Shown in pieces: positions 3,751 through 26,571 of a stretch of 64,000 bases of DNA. The DNA is from Nannocystis sp. RBIL2 (GTDB lineage Bacteria; Myxococcota_A; Polyangia; Nannocystales; Nannocystaceae). The number at the start of each line of letters is the position of its first letter. Position 1 is the first letter of the stretch. Both the position numbers and the translations under genes were made by a program. The stretch covers positions 1,382,151 through 1,446,150 of the forward strand of contig NZ_JAPNJW010000002.1 in assembly GCF_026626745.1 (NCBI RefSeq), written 5' to 3'. The notes below the pieces were generated by a model. The model searched no databases and was not told where the DNA came from. It worked only from the letters and a program-made list of their open reading frames with translations.

Positions 3751-5616
3751 TCAGCCTCCGCGCGCCTCGTACTCGAGCGCCCCCGCCGTGACCACCTCGC
3801 CGGCCCGCGCCAGGGAGAAGCGGACGCTCGTCCCGCGGACCTCGAGCCGCAGCACCAGCGCGTCGCCCGGCGCGATCGGCCGGGTGAACTTCAGCCGCGT
3901 CGCCCGCCGCAGCGGCCCCAGCTCCGGCCGCAGCGCCGCCACCTGCGGCACCACCAGCGCGGTCAGCTGCGCCACCCCCGGCAGCACCGGCAGGGCGTCG
4001 AAGTGCCCGCGGAAGAACGCCAGGTCGACCGGCACCCCCACCTCGACCTCGTGCACCGACGACCCGCCCTCTTCGCGCAGCGTATGCCCGCGCAGCGCGA
4101 ACGCCGACGCCCCCGGGCCACCTGTCCCCGCGGACATGTCCCGTGAGCCACTCAGCCCCGATCCCGCGCTCGGTGCGTCCGTCGCCGAACTTACGGACAT
4201 GTCCCTCGGGCCACCCGCCGCGACTTCCTCTTCGCCCGCGAGCCCGAGCAGCGCGTGCAGCTTGCGCCGCGTCAGCTTGCCGCTCGGCTCGCGCGGCAGC
4301 GCCGGCACCACCTTGATCCGCCGCGGCACCACCACCTGGTCGAACCACGGCAACAGCGCCCGGCGCAGCTCGGCCACCAGCTCGCCGGCGTCGCGCCCGC
4401 CCTCGCGCGCGACCACGGCGGCCACCAGCTCGTGCCCGCGGGCGCCCGGCGACTCGACCGCCACCACCGCGGCGTCGGCCACCGCGGGCAGCGCCAGCAG
4501 CCGCTGCTCGACCTCGGCCACCGCCACTCGCTTGCCGGCGATCTTCACCACCCCGTCGAGCCGCCCGCGCAGGTGGAACCCGCCGCGCGCGTCGACCTCG
4601 ACGCGATCCTCGCACGGGTACGGCACCGGCGCGTCCGGCGCCAAGAACGGCGAGCGCAGCAGCAGCCGGCCCTCGGCCGCCACCTCGACAGTCACTCCCG
4701 GCAGCGGCGTCCAGGCTGGCTCCGGGGACATGTCCCTTAAAACATCCTCGTGCCGCCGCCAGCCGATCCCGCCGGTCTCCGACGAGCCGTACACCTCGGT
4801 CACCTGCAGGCCCAGCTTCGTCAGCAGCTCGTCGGCGGTCGCCCGTGGCAACGGCGCGCCCGACGAGAACACCCGCGACAGCGGCGGCAGGTCGCCGCGC
4901 GTCAGCACCGTCAGGCCGCGCAGGTGCGCCGGCGTGCTGACCAGCACCGTCGCCGCCACCTGCCGCGCCGCCCGGGCCACCGTCTCGGCGTGCAGCGGCG
5001 TCTCGCGGGCGAACGCCGCCCCCGCGGCCAGCGGCGCCAGGATCCCGAACAGCAGCCCGTAGAGGTGGTACGGCGGCACCGTCGCCAGCGCCACCTCCCC
5101 GGCCCGCAGGGCGAACGTGGCCGCCAGCGCCTGCGCCTCGCCGAGCAGCTGCGCGGCCGTCTTGGCGCACGGCTGGTGGTCGCCGGTGCTGCCCGAGGTG
5201 TACACGACCGCCAGCCGGCGATCGGCCGCCAGCGCTTCGGGCCATGTCGGATCGGCCATGTCCCCTGAAACATGTTCCGAGAGCCACTCGCGGACGTCCT
5301 GCGCGTCGGCCAGGTCGGAGTCGTGCAGCAGCGCGACCACCGACGGCCGCCCGGCCAGCTCGCGCACGGCCGCCGGCTGGGCGTTGGGCGGCAGCGCGAC
5401 CGCGTGGCCGCGCAGCCACGCCGCCAGGGTCGTCACCGCCAGGTGATAGCGGTCGCCGCACACCACCAGCACCTCGCTGCCCGGCGCCGGCGCCGGCAGC
5501 CGCGCCGCGATGCCCCTCGCGTCGCGCATGAGCTCGCCGGCCGTGCGCGCGCCGGCCTCGCCGACGGCGACGGGCGCCACGGGATCGGTGTGGACGAGCG
5601 GGACGAACGACTTCAT
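3751..5616 (-). CDS. AMP-dependent synthetase/ligase fused to a C-terminal hotdog (FabZ/MaoC-like) dehydratase domain
   Basis: Adenylation motifs YTSGSTG, EVYGSSET and PSGKLTRRK, followed by a hotdog domain (LRGHTLREEGG...FFRGHFDALPVLPGVAQL). The true start is MKSFVPLVHTD at 5616, ATGA-coupled to the upstream gene. The ORF-track N-terminal extension overlaps the membrane-protein frame. Confidence 0.8.
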   Translation of the reverse strand: MKSFVPLVHTDPVAPVAVGEAGARTAGELMRDARGIAARLPAPAPGSEVLVVCGDRYHLAVTTLAAWLRGHAVALPPNAQPAAVRELAGRPSVVALLHDSDLADAQDVREWLSEHVSGDMADPTWPEALAADRRLAVVYTSGSTGDHQPCAKTAAQLLGEAQALAATFALRAGEVALATVPPYHLYGLLFGILAPLAAGAAFARETPLHAETVARAARQVAATVLVSTPAHLRGLTVLTRGDLPPLSRVFSSGAPLPRATADELLTKLGLQVTEVYGSSETGGIGWRRHEDVLRDMSPEPAWTPLPGVTVEVAAEGRLLLRSPFLAPDAPVPYPCEDRVEVDARGGFHLRGRLDGVVKIAGKRVAVAEVEQRLLALPAVADAAVVAVESPGARGHELVAAVVAREGGRDAGELVAELRRALLPWFDQVVVPRRIKVVPALPREPSGKLTRRKLHALLGLAGEEEVAAGGPRDMSVSSATDAPSAGSGLSGSRDMSAGTGGPGASAFALRGHTLREEGGSSVHEVEVGVPVDLAFFRGHFDALPVLPGVAQLTALVVPQVAALRPELGPLRRATRLKFTRPIAPGDALVLRLEVRGTSVRFSLARAGEVVTAGALEYEARGG

Positions 5617-6271: not shown

Positions 6272-6559
6272 TCAGCTCGCCGCCGGCGCGCGCTGTTCAG
6301 CGACGAAGCGGGCCAGGTTGGTCACGCTGGCGAAGATGTGCCGGTTCTGGGCGTCGTCGGCGCGGGTCTTGACGCCGTACTTCTTGCCGATGGCCATCGC
6401 CAGCTCGAGCACGTCGATCGAGTCGAGGCCCAGCCCCTCGACCAGCAGCGGCGCCTCTGGGTCGATGTCCTCGGGGGTCATGTCCTGCAGCATCAGGGCC
6501 TCGATGATGAGCTCCTTGATCTCGCGGACCAGGGCGTCGGGCGGGGCGGCATCTGTCAT
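6272..6559 (-). CDS. Acyl carrier protein
   Basis: 95 aa with the GLDSIDVLEL phosphopantetheine-attachment motif. Confidence 0.85.
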   Translation of the reverse strand: MTDAAPPDALVREIKELIIEALMLQDMTPEDIDPEAPLLVEGLGLDSIDVLELAMAIGKKYGVKTRADDAQNRHIFASVTNLARFVAEQRAPAAS

Positions 6560-6727
6560 GGGGTCGGCGCATCCTACGGGGATCGCCCTGGAGACGACAA
6601 GCGGCGCCCATCATCCTCCGTGGACGCCCGAGCTGCGCGCTGCGGTCACCGACACCGCGCAAGCTCACATCTCCCCCTGGCTCTTGGTGCAGGCGACCTC
6701 GGCGGCCCTCGGTACGCTCGCCGCCGC

Positions 6728-9525: not shown

Positions 9526-9781
9526 TCGCAGACACGCGAGGCCGACGGTCGCGCCTCACGGCGCGCGTCCCATTGTCCAGGAGCTCATCCCAGCGCGAAC
9601 GACCCGCCCGCGGTGCGACCCGGCCCGGCTGGGCCCGCTCGCGACCTGGAGCAGATCCGTGTGGTCCTCGCCACAAAGCTCCGGCGCCCGCGCGTCCTCG
9701 CGCATCGCTCCCGATCGACGCCAGCGCCTGCAGGCCAGGCGTTCCGCCACGTTCTCCGCCGCCATGTCAAGCTAGCTTGAC

Positions 9782-10264
9782 ATGACCGTCGTGTCGCGTA
9801 TCTTTGACATCATGTCAAGCCGAGCTGTCACCGGGGAGGCGCGCCTGAGCACCTCGTTCGCGGAGAAGAGCGTCTGGATCCAGCTGATCGGCGTGGCCGT
9901 CGCGCTGGGCCTCTATTTCGTCGTCGCCGGCTGGATGCTGGCCCGCGGAATCACCATCCTGCCCGCCTTCGCCGGCGTGTTCGTGGTCGCCGTCGTTCTG
10001 CTGGTGACGATCCTCGTGGGCGGCCACCTCGTCGCCGCGCTCGTCGGCCGCCCCGAGCCGACCGACGTGCGCGACCGCGAGATCGAGGGTCGCGCAGAGA
10101 GCCGCACCGGCTGGATCCTCGCCACCGGCGTGATCGGGGCCATCGGCGCCCTCGTCGTCGCAGTCGAGCCGGTGTGGGTCGCGCACCTGTTGCTGCTGTC
10201 GCTGTACCTGGCGGAGCTCGCCCGCCTCGCGCTGCAGCTCGTCTACTACCGGCGCGGGATGTAG
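9782..10264 (+). CDS. Small multi-pass membrane protein (DUF2975-like)
   Basis: About four transmembrane helices; immediately followed by an XRE HTH gene, a known pairing. Confidence 0.55.
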   Translation: MTVVSRIFDIMSSRAVTGEARLSTSFAEKSVWIQLIGVAVALGLYFVVAGWMLARGITILPAFAGVFVVAVVLLVTILVGGHLVAALVGRPEPTDVRDREIEGRAESRTGWILATGVIGAIGALVVAVEPVWVAHLLLLSLYLAELARLALQLVYYRRGM

Positions 10265-10266
10265 CC

Positions 10267-10494
10267 GTGGAGCCCGCACGCGGCAGCGTGAAGAACCGGA
10301 TCCGCCAGCTCCGCTTCGAGCACGGCGAGATGACGCAGCAGGAGCTGGCCGAGCGGATCGGCGTCAGCCGCCAGACCGTCAACGCGATCGAGGGCGGCAA
10401 GTACGCCCCGTCGCTCGAGGTCGCCTTCCGGATCGCCCTCGTCTTCACAGTCCCGCTCGAGACCGTATTTCAGTTCGACCCCGACGCGAAGTGA
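10267..10494 (+). CDS. XRE-family (YozG-like) helix-turn-helix regulator
   Basis: HTH motif QQELAERIGVSRQTVNAIEGGKYAPS. GTG start 2 nt after the membrane-protein stop. Confidence 0.7.
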   Translation: MEPARGSVKNRIRQLRFEHGEMTQQELAERIGVSRQTVNAIEGGKYAPSLEVAFRIALVFTVPLETVFQFDPDAK

Positions 10495-10528
10495 GGGTCC
10501 CGCGCAACTGTCCCTTCGGACAGGCGCA

Positions 10529-18547: not shown

Positions 18548-19681
18548 TCACTTCGGCTGCAGCTCGCGGAGCCGCTCCTCCAGCTCCGCCTTCAGCTCCG
18601 GGTCCGTCGCCTTGGCGATCTGCTGCTCGATCAGCTTGACCTGGACCACCCGCAGCGCGTCCTCGGCCGGCACCGCGATGTCGGGTTGCACGCCCACCCC
18701 CTCCCAGTTCGTCTTCGAGACTGGGTTTATCGCCCGGCCCGTCGGCACGAACGCCCGGAAGTGGTCGCCGAGGCGGACCATGTCGCCCGGGTTCGCCCCG
18801 CCCCACGTCACCTCGCCGACGATCGTCGCCCGCTTCAGGTTCTTCAGGTTGTACGCGAACTCCTCCGCCGCCGACCCCGTGCGCGGGCTCGTCAGCACGT
18901 AGACCTCGCGGCCCACGTAGGACTCGCCCGGCACCGGCGACGTCCAGAACTGGCGCGTCTCGTTGGCTGGCCGGAAGTACAGGTCGTTCAGGTGGACCGG
19001 CTCGTCGAACAGATAGCTGCACAGGTACGCCACCATCTCCGGCGATCCGCCCCCGTTGCGGCGCAGGTCGACGATCAGCGCGTCGGTCTCCGCCAAAAAC
19101 GCCATCGCCGCCGACGCCGCCTCGAACCCGCGGCCGGGGAACGCGAACCCGCGCACTTCCAGGTAGCCGATGTTGCCGGGCAGCCGCTCGACCTTCTCGA
19201 ACCCCCCGTTCATGCGGCGCGAGAAGTCCTCGAAGCGAGCCAGCTCCTCGGCCGACGGCTTCCCCTCGGTCTGCTGCGGCGGCAGCGTCTCCTTGCTGAA
19301 GCGGACGTGGAAGTGCGCGTCGCGCAGCACCTCGTTGATGTCGTTCGTCAGCGTCGTCGCCAGCGCGTGGCCCGTCGTGATCTTGTCGTACTCGCCGCGC
19401 TTGCGGCGGGCGCGGATCACCTTGGCCACCTCGTTGGCCTTGGCCGGGAACACGTACTTCGCCGTCAGTTCGCGCGCCAGCGCCTCGACCGCCTCCTCGC
19501 GCTCCGCCGCGGTGATCGGCCCGTCCGGCCCTCTCGGCGGCGGCGCCTTCGGCACTGCCATCTGCGGCCCGCCGGAGCTCGGCGGCGTCGCGGCCGGACT
19601 GGCGACCGCCGCCTTCGCGCAGCCGATCGTGTGCAACGTGGATAGCGCCAACCAACCGAGGATCACTGTCGACAATCGCAT
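18548..19681 (-). CDS. S41 family C-terminal processing peptidase, lipoprotein
   Basis: Lipobox LHTIGCAK and the S41 signature LIVDLRRNGGGS. Confidence 0.8.
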   Translation of the reverse strand: MRLSTVILGWLALSTLHTIGCAKAAVASPAATPPSSGGPQMAVPKAPPPRGPDGPITAAEREEAVEALARELTAKYVFPAKANEVAKVIRARRKRGEYDKITTGHALATTLTNDINEVLRDAHFHVRFSKETLPPQQTEGKPSAEELARFEDFSRRMNGGFEKVERLPGNIGYLEVRGFAFPGRGFEAASAAMAFLAETDALIVDLRRNGGGSPEMVAYLCSYLFDEPVHLNDLYFRPANETRQFWTSPVPGESYVGREVYVLTSPRTGSAAEEFAYNLKNLKRATIVGEVTWGGANPGDMVRLGDHFRAFVPTGRAINPVSKTNWEGVGVQPDIAVPAEDALRVVQVKLIEQQIAKATDPELKAELEERLRELQPK

Positions 19682-19702: not shown

Positions 19703-20275
19703 TCACTTCGCGCCGCGCGTCCGCGCCCGTGCCGGCGCCGGCTTGCCCCGCGCCGGCTTGCCCCGCGTCGGCTTCGCCCGTGCCGACCGCTTCGCCGCGC
19801 GTCGAGCCTCCGCCGCCGGCGCGACCACGCTCTTCAGCAGCAGCGCCGCCATGCGCCGGACCTCGACCTCGACCTTCGCCCGCTCGCCGAGCTCGGCGAC
19901 GCTCAGGCTGAACGGCAGGAACGCATTGGTCGCCTTCACCAGAGTCGACGCAGTCGCCGCCGCGTCCTCGACCTCGAACCGCCCGCACGCCACGCCGGCC
20001 GCCAGCACCCCGGCCACCAGCGCCACCTCGCGCTCCATGTGAGCTGTCCTTCGGGCCATGTACCCCGGCCGCACCGCCTCGAACAGCTCGTCGAGGCTCT
20101 GGCGGTACGCGCTGACGCTGTCGAACCGCCGCAGCACCCGCTCGATCAGCACCGCGCGCAGCACCTCGGCCGGATCGCCGCCCCCGCTCGCCAGCGCCAC
20201 CAGCCGCGCGTACGTCTGCGCCACCACCCGGTCGATCGACGACAGCCCGACCTCTTCCTTGCTCGGGAAGTACCA
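19703..20275 (-). pseudogene. TetR-family regulator lacking its N-terminal HTH (5'-truncated at an integration junction)
   Basis: The TetR ligand domain begins at KWYFPSKEEV. Sequence upstream of that belongs to the integrase 3' end in a different frame, so the HTH is missing. Confidence 0.6.
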
Positions 20276-20276
20276 T

Positions 20277-21326
20277 TTAGTTCGTAAACGTACGTTTAGA
20301 CCGCATCTGGACCACGTTGCCAAGCTTTGCCTGACCTTTGCCAAGTCGAGAGGACCGGGCCTCCAGCGCGGCGATGGCTTGCTTGGCAAGCGCGAGCTTG
20401 TTCACATGGACATAATACAGCAGGGTCGTCTGAAGATCCGAGTGACGGGCAAGAGCCTGAAGCGCGTACGGGCTCTCGCCGGCCTCGGCCAGGTGGGTGA
20501 GCACGGAGTGACGGATCCGGTGCGGCCCGCGGACCTCCACACCGGCCCGGACCTGGATCTTGTTCACGATCCACGCCAGCGCTTGATCCGTGGTGTGAGC
20601 GCGCCGTCCCCTCTTGGGCAGGAAGACGAACTTCACGTCGGGCCGCGTCGCCAGAAGCTCCCGGAGAGCTTCCTTCAGACGGGACGTCAGCGGGATCGTC
20701 CCGACCTCGCCCTTAGGGCTGTCCTGGAAGACACAATGGGAGACGTTCCGCTGGATCGTCATGCCCACGTCCCAGTTGATGTCCGACCACTGGAGGCCGG
20801 CGCATTCACCAATGCGCATGGCGCCGTCCACCAGCAGCAACATCAGGACTCGCTCTTCCAGGTCCTCGGCCGCATCGATCTGCTGCTCAAGCTCCGCCTC
20901 GGTGTAAACGTCCACCTTCTTTTTCTCGGCCTTGGGCCACTTGAGCGACGGAATCGCATGCATGGCTGGGAGCTTCCCCCGCTCCTTCGCCCAGTTAAGG
21001 CAAGCGGTAAGTTTCTGCTCCGCCAGCTCGATTGAACTTCGGACGCATCCACGCTCCATCATCCGCGAGCGAAGGTTCGCAAGATGCTCTTTCGCGATTT
21101 GGTCCGCACGGACCTTGCCCAGCAACGGGCCGAGGTCTTTGCGGTAAATGCTACGGTATCCGGATTGAGTGGAAGCTTTCTGATGGCGAATGTGCTCGTT
21201 GTCGAAGTCGATCCACAATTCGGCCAGCTTGGGGACTCTTTTCTCAGGTTCTTTCTTGTCCTCCTTCTTCTTCTCCGTCGCGTCTGCCTTGGGCGCGCCT
21301 TTGCACGCTTCCAAGAACATCTCCAT
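20277..21326 (-). CDS. int: Tyrosine recombinase / phage-type integrase
   Basis: C-terminal catalytic region with HRIRHS...LARHSDLQTTLLYY (R-H-R-Y). Lower-GC, Lys-rich N-terminus. Confidence 0.85.
   Translation of the reverse strand: MEMFLEACKGAPKADATEKKKEDKKEPEKRVPKLAELWIDFDNEHIRHQKASTQSGYRSIYRKDLGPLLGKVRADQIAKEHLANLRSRMMERGCVRSSIELAEQKLTACLNWAKERGKLPAMHAIPSLKWPKAEKKKVDVYTEAELEQQIDAAEDLEERVLMLLLVDGAMRIGECAGLQWSDINWDVGMTIQRNVSHCVFQDSPKGEVGTIPLTSRLKEALRELLATRPDVKFVFLPKRGRRAHTTDQALAWIVNKIQVRAGVEVRGPHRIRHSVLTHLAEAGESPYALQALARHSDLQTTLLYYVHVNKLALAKQAIAALEARSSRLGKGQAKLGNVVQMRSKRTFTN
20285..20298. other. 14-bp perfect palindrome TAAACGTACGTTTA at the integrase/TetR junction (candidate att core or integrase arm site)
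   Basis: AT-rich palindrome in GC-rich DNA, exactly where TetR homology ends and the integrase gene ends. Confidence 0.4.
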
Positions 21327-21955
21327 CCCACGTTCCTCCGGACCTTACTGTACTGCTGCATCATCTCGTCGGTCAGCCGTCGCTGGCATTCCAGGTGCTC
21401 GGCGAACATCATCGAGCCGAGTTTCAGGATGGCCGCCATGGGCGCGAGCACCGGCTCGGCGGGGCGGACATCGGGGCCGCCGGCGGGCGACGGACCAGCG
21501 CTGGACACGTTTTCGCCACCGAGCTGCCCGATCGTGCCATCGATCCAGAGCCGCTTGCCCGGATAGAGTCGAAGGAACAGCTCTACCGACTCCTGCAACT
21601 TGTCCTTTGGAACATGCACTTCAAGACACGCGCGATCCTGAGCGTCGAGCAACCTCACCCCATGCACGGCAGCAACCTCCGCCCGAACACTGGCACTCGC
21701 GAACGGGTGCGCAAGTGCCTAATTTCGACCACCAACGCCAGTTGGGTGTCGCTTGAGCATCTTCGAGCGGGACCGTGGAGACGCGGTTCATCGCAATTTT
21801 GTGTACGCATTCCTGTGTCGATCGATGGACAGCGCTGCGCCGATTGCTGCACGCATTGCTCCAGCAGAGCTGTACGCGTTGCTTGGCGCATCGCCGCTGG
21901 ACGCTGTATACGTTGCAGTGCACAGTCACCTCGCGCGTGCTAGCCTGAGCCGTCG

Positions 21956-22201
21956 ATGAGGGCGATGGCGTTTGACGAGCAAGGGGGGATGCGGGACGTG
22001 CTCGACATGTTCAAGCACTGGCACGAGTTCTGTCGTGCCACGGCCAAGGGCTTGGCGAGCACCCCGGATGACGAGCTCTTCGTAGTCCGGCAGCTCGGGC
22101 TCCCGAGCAGCCGGGTGCTCGCCGTCGTCGATCCCGAAACCCGGCACAGCCCGTCCCCTCGATCGCCCCCCTCACCACCGCCACCCTGGGCGGCATGTTG
22201 A
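21956..22201 (+). CDS. Hypothetical small protein
   Basis: 81-aa ORF in a lower-GC patch just inside the integrated region. Weak call. Confidence 0.2.
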   Translation: MRAMAFDEQGGMRDVLDMFKHWHEFCRATAKGLASTPDDELFVVRQLGLPSSRVLAVVDPETRHSPSPRSPPSPPPPWAAC

Positions 22202-22827
22202 TAACCTTGCTCGTCTCCCTGTTCGCCCGGGCTTCCTGCGACTTCCAGCTCGCCGGCCCGGTCAGCGAGGCCAGCGAGGCCCCGAGGCTCGTGCAGGCCG
22301 CGCGCAGCGCTCCGTGATCATCGCCGGGCGCCTCGGCTCCCCAGGTCCGAAGCGGGCCACGAGCGCGGGGCGCCTCGCGTGCCAGGTCGGCGGTACATCG
22401 ACCAGTGTGATGCGCGAGCGAGGTATGGACCTCGTCGTGATTACCCGGCGAGCGGCGCTTCCGACAGACTGCCGAAGCCCCGCTTCGCCGAGCTCGACGC
22501 CGAAAGTTCGGCCAGCGGGGCGCACGCCGGTGCGCGTGTCCTGGAAGCCAACCAGCCGACTGGAGCACATCCGTCACGTCCGCCCGCGGGCAGGAACTCC
22601 AGCGACGGGCAGTTCGCTCCGGTGGCCCCGGGGCGCCACGACCCCGGAACGGCGCCACGCGCGAGACAGCCAATCATGGGCCTCGCATCTCGGTGCGCAA
22701 GTACCACCGCCGCCACCGCCACGCATCGGCTGCAGCGGCACCAACGGCTCCCGCCCGTTTCCAGCGGCCCAATCGTGCGCAGGCGGGTTCACCGTCGACG
22801 AGGGGCCTCGACGTTGTACGCCCGCGG

Positions 22828-25800
22828 TCAGCGGCGCCGGCGCCGGCGCAGGCCCAGCAGCGCCAGCCACGGTAACGCCTGGGCCAGCGGGGCCGGGCCG
22901 TCCTCACCGACGACGCAACCACACCCGGCCGAGACGTTGGCCCCGGGCCCGGTGTCCGAGGCTTCGCCGGCCGACGTGCTGCCCTCGGTGGGGTCGGTCG
23001 AGGCGCCGGTGGTCGGCGCCTCTCCGCTCTCGTCCCCGTCGGTGGGGTCCTCGGAGGGGACGCACGAGCCGGCGTCGGGGATCCAGCGCGGAAACGGCGA
23101 GTTGGTGAGACCTGAGATCGAGATGTCGTCGATGTCCCAGCCGGGTGCGCTGTAGGCTCCGTTGGTGCCGACGCGGAAGCGAAGGCGCATCGTCAGCCCC
23201 GCGAGCTTCTTGCCGAGGTTCACGCTCCAAGGCTTGCGCGTCGGGTAGCCATAGCTCTCGCCGACGAAGGCGGGACGTCCGGTCAGCACATTGCCGTTGG
23301 CGCTGATCTCGCCGTTATAGCCGGCCTCTGGGAGGACCAGGTTGAGATCGTGCCAGTTCTCGCCGTCGTCGCTCGAAAGCTCGATCACGCCGCCGTCCCA
23401 CGGATGATCGTTGATGAAGTCGAAGCTGAACGCATGCTCGAAGCTGAGCACGAAGTCCTCGTCCTTCGACACGACCAGCGGCGGCGAGACCAGGCTGACG
23501 TCGCTGTTCGTCGGGATGTCGGCGGCATGCCAGACGTGGCCGGGGCCGTTCCCCATGCGCGACCAGACCAGCTCGCCGAGCTCGCCCTCGACGGTCCACG
23601 GCGTCTCGTCGACCTCGACGTCGTCGCTCGTCGAGCTCGCCATCTGGCGGTCGGCATGGCCTTGACCGCGCAGCAGCAGTTGGCCGGGCGCCTCGCACCC
23701 CTCCGCCCCGTTGACCCGCAGCCGGAGCGCGATGGGCTGCGGCGCGGTCACCGTATCGGCGAGCGCGACCGTGATCTTCACCGTGGTCTTCTCCAGCGGC
23801 GCGAGCTCCGGCAACGCCACCGCGAGCCCGTCGGGAAACACCAGCGCCGGATCGAACTCCGCCACCTCGAGCTTCGATCCGGGCGGGAGCGGCACCATGC
23901 CGGCGTTGAACACCTCGACCTCGACCTGCCCGACCTCGCCGACGTCGAGCACGCCGTCGTGGTCGCACGACGCGAGGTCGTCGCTCAGCTTCGCGGTGAG
24001 CGGGACGCCCCGCCCCCGCACCTCGAAGTCCTCCTTCACGCCCTGGAAGGTCTCCGAGTAGCGCGGCGGCGAGACGGCGCAACTGCCCGCCCCGCGGCGC
24101 GCGAACGCGGCGGCGAACCTCGTCGCGTCCGCCGCGCTGGTCGCCGCGACGGCCATCAGCAGGGCGTCCCGCTGCTCGGTATGGGTCGCGTCCGGCGGCG
24201 CCAGCATCATCGCGGCGACCACGTAGTCGGACATCCGCCGCCGGACCTCGTCGAACGTGAGGTCGCCCTTGTGGGCCTCGTGCAGCGCGACGTAAGCCTC
24301 CCACAACATCGACGCCCACACCTCGCCGGCGTTGTGCTGCTGGCTGTTCGGGCTCGGCGACTTCTTGACCGGGTGGTCGTCCGGCAGCGGCTCGCCGTCG
24401 GCGATGTGGCGGAAGCTCAGGGCGTTTCGCGTCGGGTCGACCGAGTACGGCACGCGCCGAAAGCCGAAGTAGCCGGTCGAGTCGAGATTGGCGTACTGAC
24501 CGATGACGAAGGCCCGGTCGAGGTCGTCGCCCTCGCGCAGGCTCATCAGCAGCGCGTTGAAGTCGCCCCACCCCTCGCTCTGGGCCCGGCCCGCCGCGCT
24601 GCCGGTGAAGGCGAGGCGGTAGTGGAGGAAGTGCCCCCACTCGTGCGCGACCAGCAAGTTGTCAAGGGCGCCGTCTCGATCCGGGCTCGGAGCGCCGGCG
24701 ATGTGCACGGTCTGCTGGCCGAGTTGCAACGCCGCCTCGATCGCGTCACCCGCGGCCTTGCTCGTGCCGACGGCGGGGATCGACGGATCGACGATGTCCT
24801 CCGAGTCTTGGAGCTCGGGCGGGTTGAGGTCGTTGCTGGCGCTGACGAGGACGACTCCGACCGCCCCGGCGGCCTCGGCGGCGGCGACCTTGAACTCGTC
24901 GTCGCAGCCGCCGCGTTTGATCAGCGCGATCTGACCGCTCACGTCGTTCAGCGGCGGATCGCAGCCGTCGCCAGGGTTCACACCGCCGGCGTCGACGACC
25001 TGCACCATCGTCGCCGTCACGTCGAAGTTCTCCGGGCCGAAGCTCGCCGCCCGCGCATTGAACTGCTGGTTCAGCGGCGTCAGCTCGAGGTCCGCCAGCG
25101 CCGCCGGATCGAACAGCAAGATCTCCATCCGCGGCGAGGCGCCGTCGACCGGGGTCCCCATCCAGCCGTTGTTGCGCAGCCCGCTGAAGGTGCCCTCCTG
25201 CGCCTCGACGAGCATCGGGTCGCCCTCGGTCCCACCGCGCCCGAAGTTGTCGGCCTGCGCGTTGCCGGTCGCCTCGGTGAACCCGGACTCGTACCACCAG
25301 TCGTGCTGCCAATTGGCGACGTAGAACAGGTTGACGGCGACCGCCTTCCACTGCGTCTCATTCGCACGCGGGCCGAGGGCGGGGTCGTACACGTGATCGA
25401 ACACGCCGGGCGAGGTCGCCGTGGCGCGGAGCCGATCCCCGGGCTCGGGATTGTCGCGGCTCGGATCGACGTAGGCGTCGACGTTGTTGCCCCGGGTCTC
25501 GGTCGCGGCCGGCGGCAGCCACGGGTCGGGCTCGCCGTCGGGGTTGGTGTTGAAGCCCTCCATCGTGATGAGCGCGGGCTCCGTGAACTTCGTCGGGCCC
25601 TTGCCCGGGACGCCCGTCGGGTGCGGGTTGTAGTCGATCGTCGGGCCGTCGAGCGGCCGCCCGTCTTTTCCGGGCTCGGCCCACGCCCGGTATTGATGGG
25701 AGTGGGCGGTCGCGTCGCGGCGGTATAGGAGCTGGCCGTCGTCGGCGGCGACGATGTATTGATAGAGGTCTTCCTGCCCGTCGAGCGAGGTCTGCAGCTC

Positions 25801-26571
25801 GACGAAGTGCCCCGGCACCAGCCTGTCGCCGAGCGGGAAGTAGACCGGCCGCACGCGCGCGGGCTCGCGGAATCGTAGCCGCCCGCCGGACGTGAGCGCG
25901 TAGTGACGCCATTCGGCCCGCGTCTCCCTCGCCGCGAGCGCGACCTCCCCGATGTCGCCGTGGAGGTCGCGCAGGGCGATGCCGATCGCACGCTCGGCGG
26001 ACAGCGCGAAGGCCGGCGCCCGCCCGGGCAGCGCCGCCGGGTGTGGGGTCCCCGAGATCGCCACCAACCGGCGCGTGCGATCGAGCAGGAGCTTGATGTC
26101 GGCCTGGAACACGTCGACGCCGTCCACGGTCTGCCGCAGCGCGACGATGATCCCGCCGCGCCCGGTGTCGTGGGTGTACAGGTGACGCGCCGCCGCGAGA
26201 GCCGCCCGCGTGACGCCGTAGCTCGGCGCATGGCGCTCGAGATGCGACCGCGCGGCCGCCTCGAGCGACATCGACTGCGGCGATGGCTCGGCGAGCGGGG
26301 TCCACAACAGCGAGGGCGCGCCGCGCCCCGGCTCCCGCGCCACCGCGACCCCCGCGGCGACTGGCGCGGGTGGGGCCGGAGGGACAGACATCGCCGCATG
26401 GAGGTTCGGCAGATCGCGCGCTCGCGCGTCAGCGGAGAGGACGTAGAGGCAAGTCAGGGAAAGAGCAGGAAATAATAAGCGAATGGCCACCCAAACAAAG
26501 AGATGAGTAACGGCGTATTGGTTGATACACCCGCAGCGAGCTGCCGGTGATTTGTCGCACGCCCAATGCAA
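22828..26571 (-). CDS. Secreted M36 (fungalysin-like) zinc metalloprotease with PA domain and MYXO-CTERM sorting tail
   Basis: HEWGHFLHYRL plus SEGWGDF match fungalysin (HEYTHG...EGWSDF). PA-domain insert. C-terminal GCGC, hydrophobic stretch, RRRRRR. The 5' end sits in an unusual low-GC patch, so the start is uncertain. Confidence 0.8.
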   Translation of the reverse strand: MHWACDKSPAARCGCINQYAVTHLFVWVAIRLLFPALSLTCLYVLSADARARDLPNLHAAMSVPPAPPAPVAAGVAVAREPGRGAPSLLWTPLAEPSPQSMSLEAAARSHLERHAPSYGVTRAALAAARHLYTHDTGRGGIIVALRQTVDGVDVFQADIKLLLDRTRRLVAISGTPHPAALPGRAPAFALSAERAIGIALRDLHGDIGEVALAARETRAEWRHYALTSGGRLRFREPARVRPVYFPLGDRLVPGHFVELQTSLDGQEDLYQYIVAADDGQLLYRRDATAHSHQYRAWAEPGKDGRPLDGPTIDYNPHPTGVPGKGPTKFTEPALITMEGFNTNPDGEPDPWLPPAATETRGNNVDAYVDPSRDNPEPGDRLRATATSPGVFDHVYDPALGPRANETQWKAVAVNLFYVANWQHDWWYESGFTEATGNAQADNFGRGGTEGDPMLVEAQEGTFSGLRNNGWMGTPVDGASPRMEILLFDPAALADLELTPLNQQFNARAASFGPENFDVTATMVQVVDAGGVNPGDGCDPPLNDVSGQIALIKRGGCDDEFKVAAAEAAGAVGVVLVSASNDLNPPELQDSEDIVDPSIPAVGTSKAAGDAIEAALQLGQQTVHIAGAPSPDRDGALDNLLVAHEWGHFLHYRLAFTGSAAGRAQSEGWGDFNALLMSLREGDDLDRAFVIGQYANLDSTGYFGFRRVPYSVDPTRNALSFRHIADGEPLPDDHPVKKSPSPNSQQHNAGEVWASMLWEAYVALHEAHKGDLTFDEVRRRMSDYVVAAMMLAPPDATHTEQRDALLMAVAATSAADATRFAAAFARRGAGSCAVSPPRYSETFQGVKEDFEVRGRGVPLTAKLSDDLASCDHDGVLDVGEVGQVEVEVFNAGMVPLPPGSKLEVAEFDPALVFPDGLAVALPELAPLEKTTVKITVALADTVTAPQPIALRLRVNGAEGCEAPGQLLLRGQGHADRQMASSTSDDVEVDETPWTVEGELGELVWSRMGNGPGHVWHAADIPTNSDVSLVSPPLVVSKDEDFVLSFEHAFSFDFINDHPWDGGVIELSSDDGENWHDLNLVLPEAGYNGEISANGNVLTGRPAFVGESYGYPTRKPWSVNLGKKLAGLTMRLRFRVGTNGAYSAPGWDIDDISISGLTNSPFPRWIPDAGSCVPSEDPTDGDESGEAPTTGASTDPTEGSTSAGEASDTGPGANVSAGCGCVVGEDGPAPLAQALPWLALLGLRRRRRR

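Follow-up and report, generated by a model that had tools for sequence, protein, structure and literature searches.

A probable scar of a tyrosine-integrase element in a tetR gene of Nannocystis sp. RBIL2

The DNA described here is a stretch of 64,000 nucleotides from the myxobacterium Nannocystis sp. RBIL2 (contig NZ_JAPNJW010000002.1, positions 1,382,151 to 1,446,150 of the forward strand), which is called the window below. About 20.3 kb into the window, the 3' end of a tyrosine integrase gene (int) abuts a tetR gene that lacks its 5' part, both on the minus strand (Table 1). An original prediction made from the letters alone had named this place as an integration junction in a 5'-truncated tetR gene, with the integrase frame terminating immediately upstream of the tetR part. 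Both statements are borne out. The integrase open reading frame (ORF) ends with a TAA stop codon at 20279-20277, and DNA matching tetR begins one nucleotide further on, at about codon 48 of the gene (YFPSKEE in the protein). The sequence past this single nucleotide is TGGTACTTCCCGAGCAAGGAAGAG, and its frame stays open to 19703. It encodes the C-terminal domain TetR_C_27, and the N-terminal domain TetR_N is absent. The guanine-plus-cytosine (GC) content of the window is 56-65% across approximately 20.2-22.1 kb as compared with 70-78% in both flanks.

What is left of tetR is identified by its ligand-binding part. TetR_C_27 (PF17935) is matched with 28.9 bits against a cutoff of 26.1 bits, and TetR/AcrR proteins of N. 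pusilla, which are 243-245 residues long and carry PF00440, share 91-97% identity with the fragment. These intact proteins read ...GVSRRTIYMYFPSKEE, also given as ...GVSRRTIYMYFPSKEEVGLSS. The helix-turn-helix (HTH) part of the repressor had been reported as missing, and this holds for the whole window. PF00440 (TetR_N) has no match in the longest ORF of the TetR frame, and tblastn with the N-terminal 79 residues of the orthologues gave no other match in the 64 kb. The first 46 residues of the orthologues, which correspond to the HTH codons, were likewise without a tblastn match in the window. A low-stringency blastn search of the window with the 5' coding part and promoter of tetR from four genomes returned only GC-rich noise, and a manual reading of the window in six frames did not find the HTH half. 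An N-terminus encoded with an unusual start was also considered; by domain scan and tblastn, none rescues the HTH. The S41 peptidase gene on the other side of the fragment accompanies tetR as a conserved neighbour in every Nannocystis locus, and the order of the two genes is the same in the N. pusilla locus L001 and the N. punicea locus L002. The lost repressor probably regulated this peptidase gene.

Six Nannocystis genomes or proteins keep tetR intact, namely those of N. pusilla (L001, L007 and P0001), N. punicea (L002), N. exedens (L006) and SCPEA4 (P0006). The junction is thus lineage-specific and not an arrangement fixed across the genus. Four of the intact loci are collinear with the window from the left, and in all four the collinearity breaks at 20273-20285. 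The DNA identities are 94% for N. pusilla L001, 93-95% for N. pusilla Na p29 (L007), 89-96% for N. exedens and 82-94% for N. punicea; the N. exedens and Na p29 loci come from one scan of genome contigs with a cut-off of 80 loci, which left short fragments out. In a three-way DNA alignment, exact identity to tetR runs from GTACTTCCCG (window 20273) downward. The intact orthologues read ...RRTIYMYFPSKEE, and therefore true tetR identity extends from GTACTTC downward, four nucleotides from the last base of the integrase stop at 20277. The TetR homology had been said to start at KWYFPSKEE. This is correct from YFPSKEE onward, but the KW is not derived from TetR, because exact identity with the intact gene begins only at 20273. 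Uninterrupted tetR sequence, ACGATCTACATGTACTTCCCGAGCAAGGAAGAG, is found in N. pusilla and N. punicea alleles. Just past the breakpoint, the element sequence ACGAACTAAAT and the tetR sequence ACGATCTACAT match at 9 of 11 positions with an offset of one nucleotide, a similarity that would be expected for related core-binding arms.

The catalytic part of the integrase is well preserved. PF00589 is matched with E=1.2e-24 over profile positions 4-170 of 172, which means that the catalytic domain is complete, and integrase families of PHROG are matched as well, among them phrog_1 (E=1e-47). The catalytic R, H-x-x-R, H/W and Y motifs are readable in MRIGE, HRIRHS and RHSDLQTTLLYY, and they align with those of the relatives. 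The protein is 100% identical to MCY1069163 of RBIL2 and to MCY0992249 of ILAH1. Its family, the HTH_17-integrases of Nannocystaceae (P0122-P0167), has a full length of about 460-490 residues. Most full-length members carry an N-terminal HTH_17 (PF12728), which is followed by a domain of about 90 residues. We built a local family profile of 484 positions from 36 full-length relatives of at least 440 residues. The window integrase covers only positions 132-482 of this hidden Markov model, and positions 1-131, which comprise HTH_17 and the next domain, have no match in any frame of the window. The C-terminus is equal in length to that of the relatives, and only the last eight residues differ. 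At the other end, the DNA homology to relatives stops at about 21338-21341. An early tblastn result had extended the homology to 21431; this was ruled out by the DNA alignment with the metagenome contig L103, which ends at about 21338. ILAH1 has a second integrase of the family on a contig of 587 kb (P0124), which is 65% identical, 343 residues long and without HTH_17, suggesting another decayed copy elsewhere in that genome.

In four loci of relatives (L003, L004, L005 and L102), the full-length integrase gene is preceded by conserved genes on the same strand, which encode proteins of about 700-1042, 430 and 430 residues. This gene set is an uncharacterised mobile-element module. The two genes for about 430 residues are present in L003 (4215-9943), L004 (53-4753) and L005 (3-4664) together with a larger one, which encodes 1042 residues in L003 and about 700 up to the ends of the metagenome contigs. 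In the short contig L102 (3-1841), a gene for 433 residues and part of another stand before the integrase. Between L003 and L004 the proteins share 61-68% identity, and the proteins of all four loci have no match in Pfam or PHROG. When all of these cargo genes were compared with the window by tblastn, nothing was found at E<=1e-3.

The position of the crossover is suggested by the more distant relatives. In metagenome contigs whose integrases are about 40% identical, the integrase 3' end is the same and is followed, 13 nucleotides past the stop, by TTGGACTT-CGGCAAC, after which the target DNAs differ. Because a common integrase end joins different targets, the crossover in these relatives lies a few nucleotides 3' of the integrase stop. 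In most of these contigs the DNA that follows consists of genes for cysteine-rich repeat proteins with the motif CDDGN, in either orientation. In two of them (L089 and L096), a symmetric arm, AAGTCCAA, comes next, so that a full 8-7-8 core is formed. Closer relatives have an octamer 1-2 nucleotides past the stop, which is TGATACTT in L003 and L102 (73-74% identity) and CCATAATT in L004 (48% identity). The equivalent in the window is TGGTACTT (20275-20268), one nucleotide after the integrase stop. The candidate core that starts with this octamer holds the inverted repeat CTTCC-7-GGAAG and coincides with the tetR codons M/W-Y-F-P-S-K-E-E. By analogy with the relatives, the Y-F-P-S-K-E-E stretch of tetR may be the core of the bacterial attachment site (attB), with strand exchange within it.

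A second attachment site was looked for in the form of another copy of a palindrome near the junction or of a flanking repeat, and the 64-kb window contains none. The palindrome, the 11-mers of the junction and the 21-mer of the core are all unique in it, the last with up to three mismatches allowed. Neither a second att copy nor the tetR 5' half is present within the 43.7 kb to the right.

Two further features lie on the element side. Three GGCAA units are found inside the integrase 3' end, a pattern that occurs once in the window where none is expected. The same triplet of units is present at the integrase 3' end in 19 of 19 loci with integrases of the family and in none of 85 other loci. 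The middle unit does not share the reading frame of the outer two, so that conservation seems to act on the DNA, and the units are candidate arm-type binding sites of the element's own attachment site (attP). The palindrome TAAACGTACGTTTA is the other feature. The original prediction had described it as a perfect AT-rich palindrome of 14 bp sitting at the breakpoint. Its length, perfection and composition are confirmed; however, it is not at the breakpoint but 12-25 bp away on the element side, within integrase codons. Allowing two mismatches, it is still the sole match in the window, with none expected. Perfect palindromes of at least 14 bp number 27 in the window as compared with about 13.5 in Markov-1 simulations, and the one at the junction is unusual in AT-richness alone. 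A change in palindrome density at 20.3 kb, which had been claimed as well, is absent, as perfect palindromes of at least 12 bp occur about once per kb on either side.

The palindrome is identical in L103. A related dyad, CCGTAG-8-CTACGG with 6-bp arms, has its centre exactly as far from the stop (-12.5 nucleotides) in L102, and L003 has the same with one mismatch. There is no dyad at this position in the relatives of 40% identity. Judged from these alignments, the palindrome may be a dyad in the attP arm of this subfamily to which a protein binds. An RNA hairpin or terminator was ruled out, with a minimum free energy of -7.7 kcal/mol and z = +1.57.

Several observations concern attachment-type sequences in the relatives. 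The metagenome loci L086-L099 (for example L089:2596-2640, L096:2457-2500, L099:1198-1340) hold the integrases of about 40% identity in CDDGN (DUF4215-like) genes, in both orientations. The complete symmetric core in L089 and L096 could be an attP or a tandem arrangement. L099 has two junctions only about 100 nucleotides apart. In L094, the three GGCAA units occur at 4003-4028 on the plus strand and at 4413-4438 on the minus strand, about 400 bp apart, which suggests two integrase 3' ends of the family facing each other across one target. L004 contains an exact direct repeat of 21 bp, TGCGGCCTGCCGCTGCTGTGA, at 6559-6579, 26 nucleotides after the integrase stop, and again at 10492-10512, 3.9 kb downstream.

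The same junction is present in RBIL2, in ILAH1 and in one metagenome contig, L103. In both RBIL2 and ILAH1, the integrase gene is two locus tags from the M36 protease gene. In L103 the junction sequence is identical to that of the window, with the integrase 93.3% and the tetR fragment 95.9% identical. The L103 integrase has a frameshift of one nucleotide and is cut at profile position ~95 as compared with ~132 in the window, and the DNA upstream of it is unrelated, differing from the window just 93 nucleotides further on. The ratio of nonsynonymous to synonymous substitution rates (dN/dS) between the window and L103 is 0.34 for the integrase and 0.24 for the tetR fragment; the counts are small, and the values indicate relaxed but not neutral evolution. 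Either the ancestor of the two copies carried an intact element that then decayed separately in each line, or related elements entered the same attB in separate events. Both histories fit, and both are consistent with site-specific integration followed by decay.

To the right of the integrase remnant, up to the M36 protease gene, lies DNA of no recognisable origin. Its ORFs have no match in Pfam, NCBIfam or PHROG and include no convincing gene, and blastn and tblastx of this DNA against 104 loci and the rest of the window gave no match. An ORF at 21329-21667 and small ORFs at 21.3-22.2 kb were rejected as genes or element remnants, with no domain match and no similarity to any locus. This orphan DNA marks the point where the element was cut away. 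A normal GC content of 70-78% and ordinary myxobacterial genes are back by approximately 22.2-22.8 kb. The right-flank genes encode the M36 protease with a MYXO-CTERM tail, a PAS/STAS protein, an extracytoplasmic function (ECF) sigma factor, Ser/Thr kinases, a jacalin lectin and polysaccharide functions, and one fragment of an IS66 transposase is among them. The M36 protease, which is one of many Nannocystis paralogues, is 100% identical to the RBIL2 protein. Its nearest N. pusilla homologue is 76% identical in protein and 84% in DNA and stands in a different genomic context, around which the right flank is not conserved. The IS66 ORF lies toward the right, where the GC content of the window is lower, and is probably a truncated copy. 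On the left side of the window, a perfect palindrome of 22 bp, CATGTCAAGCTAGCTTGACATG, occupies the short gap at 9763-9784 before the plus-strand ORF 9782-10264, and its sequence looks like that of an operator.

A change of gene content to the right of the junction had also been proposed. The right flank is indeed non-syntenic with the relatives, but the DNA upstream of tetR is variable among all Nannocystis species compared. Conservation across Nannocystis species (L001, L002, L006, L007, 1-10000) extends over only about 100-250 bp of it. Farther out the DNA is mosaic, with a content that changes from species to species and even among strains of N. pusilla, which makes it a zone of local plasticity. 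Because this flank varies among all species compared, non-synteny to the right is no specific evidence of an island. The idea that the right flank is a displaced tetR neighbourhood was rejected, since it has no match to the tetR upstream regions of four Nannocystis genomes.

Table 1. Features at and around the int-tetR junction in the window
Feature	Position	Strand	Description
S41 peptidase gene	18548-19681	-	21 nucleotides downstream of the tetR stop; PF03572 and PF11918
tetR 3' fragment	19703-20275	-	About codon 48 to stop, ligand-binding domain only, without HTH and promoter; PF17935 and orthologue alignment
Candidate core-type recombination site	20253-20275	-	TGGTACTT (20275-20268), CCCGAGC (20267-20261), AAGGAAGA (20260-20253)
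Tyrosine integrase ORF	20277-21326	-	349 aa including the stop; catalytic domain and C-terminus complete, N-terminal ~130 residues gone
Perfect AT-rich palindrome of 14 bp, TAAACGTACGTTTA	20285-20298		In the last integrase codons, S-K-R-T-F-T; centre 12.5 nucleotides 5' of the stop
Three GGCAA units	20317-20342	-	Inside the integrase 3' end; 11- and 10-bp spacing; middle unit in a different reading frame
Orphan DNA	21339-22830		From the integrase remnant to the M36 protease gene; GC 56-68% up to ~22.1 kb
M36 (fungalysin) metalloprotease gene	22828-26571		PA domain; C-terminal GCGC...LLGLRRRRRR tail, MYXO-CTERM-like
IS66 transposase, C-terminal part	52612-53805		DDE_Tnp_IS66 positions 167-283 of 284, and IS66_C

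The locus is a genuine, lineage-specific and decayed integration scar in tetR, of a kind that is already known, and the scar as such is not surprising. The explanation that we consider probable is that an element with a tyrosine integrase inserted site-specifically into tetR, left a junction of the attL type, and has since decayed in the RBIL2/ILAH1 lineage. The attP core would lie immediately 3' of the integrase stop, with the putative arm sites, the three GGCAA units, inside the integrase 3' end, and this would make the integrase stop abut the target DNA once the element is integrated. Recombination would take place in or beside the tetR codons M-Y-F-P-S-K-E-E, where an inverted repeat with a 7-bp spacer resembles the family core. 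The 5' part of tetR that encodes the HTH, together with the promoter, would thereby be split from the 3' part that encodes the ligand-binding domain, and the repressor would be inactivated. A later deletion would have taken the cargo, the 5' quarter of the integrase gene, the other att junction and the 5' part of tetR, at least from the 64-kb neighbourhood, and the remaining scar would no longer be able to excise.

Some points weigh against this explanation. The crossover is placed by analogy with related elements rather than measured. A single independent insertion into tetR is documented, which L103 and ILAH1 may have inherited from a common ancestor. The closest full-length relatives, L003 and L102 (73-74% identity), adjoin a gene other than tetR; a TetR-gene target for these two was considered and rejected, as the protein downstream of the integrase carries no TetR signal. 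The tetR 5' half may have moved elsewhere rather than been deleted, its absence being a statement about the 64-kb window. The integrase ORF, moreover, is open and keeps all catalytic motifs, and its dN/dS relative to L103 is 0.34 and not 1, so that residual integrase activity or a recent inactivation is possible.

The junction might instead be the left border of an intact island of more than 44 kb, with a functional integrase and with the other att site and the tetR 5' half past the right end of the window. The failure of all DNA to the right of 20285 to match the sequence upstream of tetR in four Nannocystis genomes would agree with this, as would the distant and differently placed N. pusilla homologue of the M36 protease and the IS66 transposase fragment at 52.6-53.8 kb. 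Yet the integrase lacks the N-terminal third of its full-length relatives, and the gene set that precedes it in L003, L004, L005 and L102 is absent. Ordinary GC content and ordinary myxobacterial genes resume by about 22.2-22.8 kb, the L103 DNA upstream of the integrase diverges from the window after 93 nucleotides, and the tetR upstream flank differs among all species compared in any case. We consider a large island quite unlikely. The original prediction had placed here the left border of an integrated or accessory region, and this is not supported: the integrase is 5'-truncated, the cargo is untraced, ordinary genes resume and the window holds no second att site. Nothing points to a coherent island that begins at the junction.

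It is also conceivable that illegitimate recombination or a deletion, and not the integrase, brought the end of the integrase gene next to tetR, their exact abutment being coincidental. Deletions have occurred at this locus, as the other side of the remnant (~21340) was made by a non-specific one and L103 has a different one. Against such a coincidence, the integrase frame is complete to its normal stop with a length as in the relatives, and the joint falls within 1-4 nucleotides of the core position of related elements. Arm-like sequence shared by element and tetR extends across the joint, the target has an inverted repeat of 5-7-5 with a core-like geometry, and an identical joint is found in a lineage that is 4-7% diverged. 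Accidental joining is therefore held to be unlikely. Least of all do we favour the palindrome TAAACGTACGTTTA as the recombination core, in which its two halves would be inverted integrase-binding half-sites with strand exchange between them. The palindrome is unique and compositionally odd, and the L102 dyad is centred at an equal distance from the stop. But both halves are of element type, intact tetR reads GTCAGCCGCCGG at this place with no similarity, and tetR identity begins 12 bp further on. The palindrome has no repeat in the window, and the relatives of 40% identity, in which the core is directly visible, have no dyad there. A role as the core is very improbable, and the palindrome could still be an accessory protein-binding site.

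If site-specific insertion into tetR followed by decay is accepted, both the "integrase" of 349 aa and the TetR-like ORF that follows it are best annotated as remnants in RBIL2 and ILAH1. The RBIL2/ILAH1 lineage then lacks a repressor whose gene other Nannocystis retain immediately before the S41 peptidase gene. The relatives point to an uncharacterised family of myxobacterial integrative elements in which att overlaps or abuts the integrase 3' end and at least some members insert in conserved coding motifs. Knowledge of this family could help to delimit islands in genomes of 11-13 Mb and supply integration tools for myxobacteria. A more speculative thought, to which we give only modest credence, is that the attB sites of the family's integrases are short, highly conserved coding motifs that recur in the many copies of a gene family. 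Two cases may be of this type, as far as their sequences suggest: Y-F-P-S-K-E-E of TetR here, and C-D-D-G-N of the cysteine-rich repeat proteins in the relatives of 40% identity. Our reserve is due to the TetR case resting on one event. If true, motif targeting would give each element a wide choice of integration sites in a genome and a means of disrupting regulators.

Among known systems, the myxophage Mx8 is one of the closest. Its attP lies inside the int coding sequence (Tojo 1996 and Magrini 1999, as reviewed in PMC6070905 and PMC4383910). The two share a myxobacterial host, an integrase as the terminal gene reading toward the junction, and att determinants that overlap the integrase 3' end, which here would be the three GGCAA units and the dyad in the last ~65 nucleotides and a core 1-2 nucleotides past the stop. 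They seem to differ in that the Mx8 crossover is described as lying inside int, so that the C-terminus is replaced, whereas in the window the stop precedes the putative core and the C-terminus has normal length. That the stop precedes the first tetR-identical base speaks, with the normal length, against a crossover of the Mx8 type, but the last eight integrase residues do differ from the relatives. A close sequence relationship to the Mx8 integrase, IntP, was not detectable: a tblastn search of 50,697 phage records with P0123, a relative of full length, reached at best 27% identity over 56% of the query. The 12 matches listed are to Streptococcus phages and satellites and to human-gut phages, with no myxophage among them, and the best come from phages of Gram-positive bacteria. 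Mx8 targets a tRNA-Asp locus, whereas the element in the window sits in a protein-coding gene.

Integrases of the lambda type share with the window protein the PF00589 catalytic domain with its R, H-x-x-R, H and Y motifs. The 8-bp inverted arms around a 7-bp overlap in the relatives and the phased direct repeats beside the core are also lambda-like. The N-terminus of the family, in contrast, is an excisionase-like HTH_17 and not the arm-binding fold of lambda, and it is missing in the window copy. Site-specific elements that split genes are known from other bacteria, such as the A118-like phage in comK of Listeria and, in B. subtilis, skin in sigK and SPbeta in spsM. Like these, the insertion described here interrupts an ORF in a conserved coding motif and inactivates the gene. 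Those elements can be excised and the gene restored, whereas here a truncated integrase is what remains of the element, the 5' half of tetR is no longer nearby and the damage is permanent. Degraded island remnants, in which an integrase pseudogene stands beside a displaced fragment of the target, have been catalogued for islands in tRNA and tmRNA (transfer-messenger RNA) genes (tDNA) in Islander (PMC4383910). The present target differs from these in being a tetR ORF and not a tRNA or tmRNA gene, and the element does not restore the missing part of its target. The locus is like such remnants in that an integrase fragment adjoins a displaced target fragment, the GC content is below that of the host, and the arrangement is confined to some strains.

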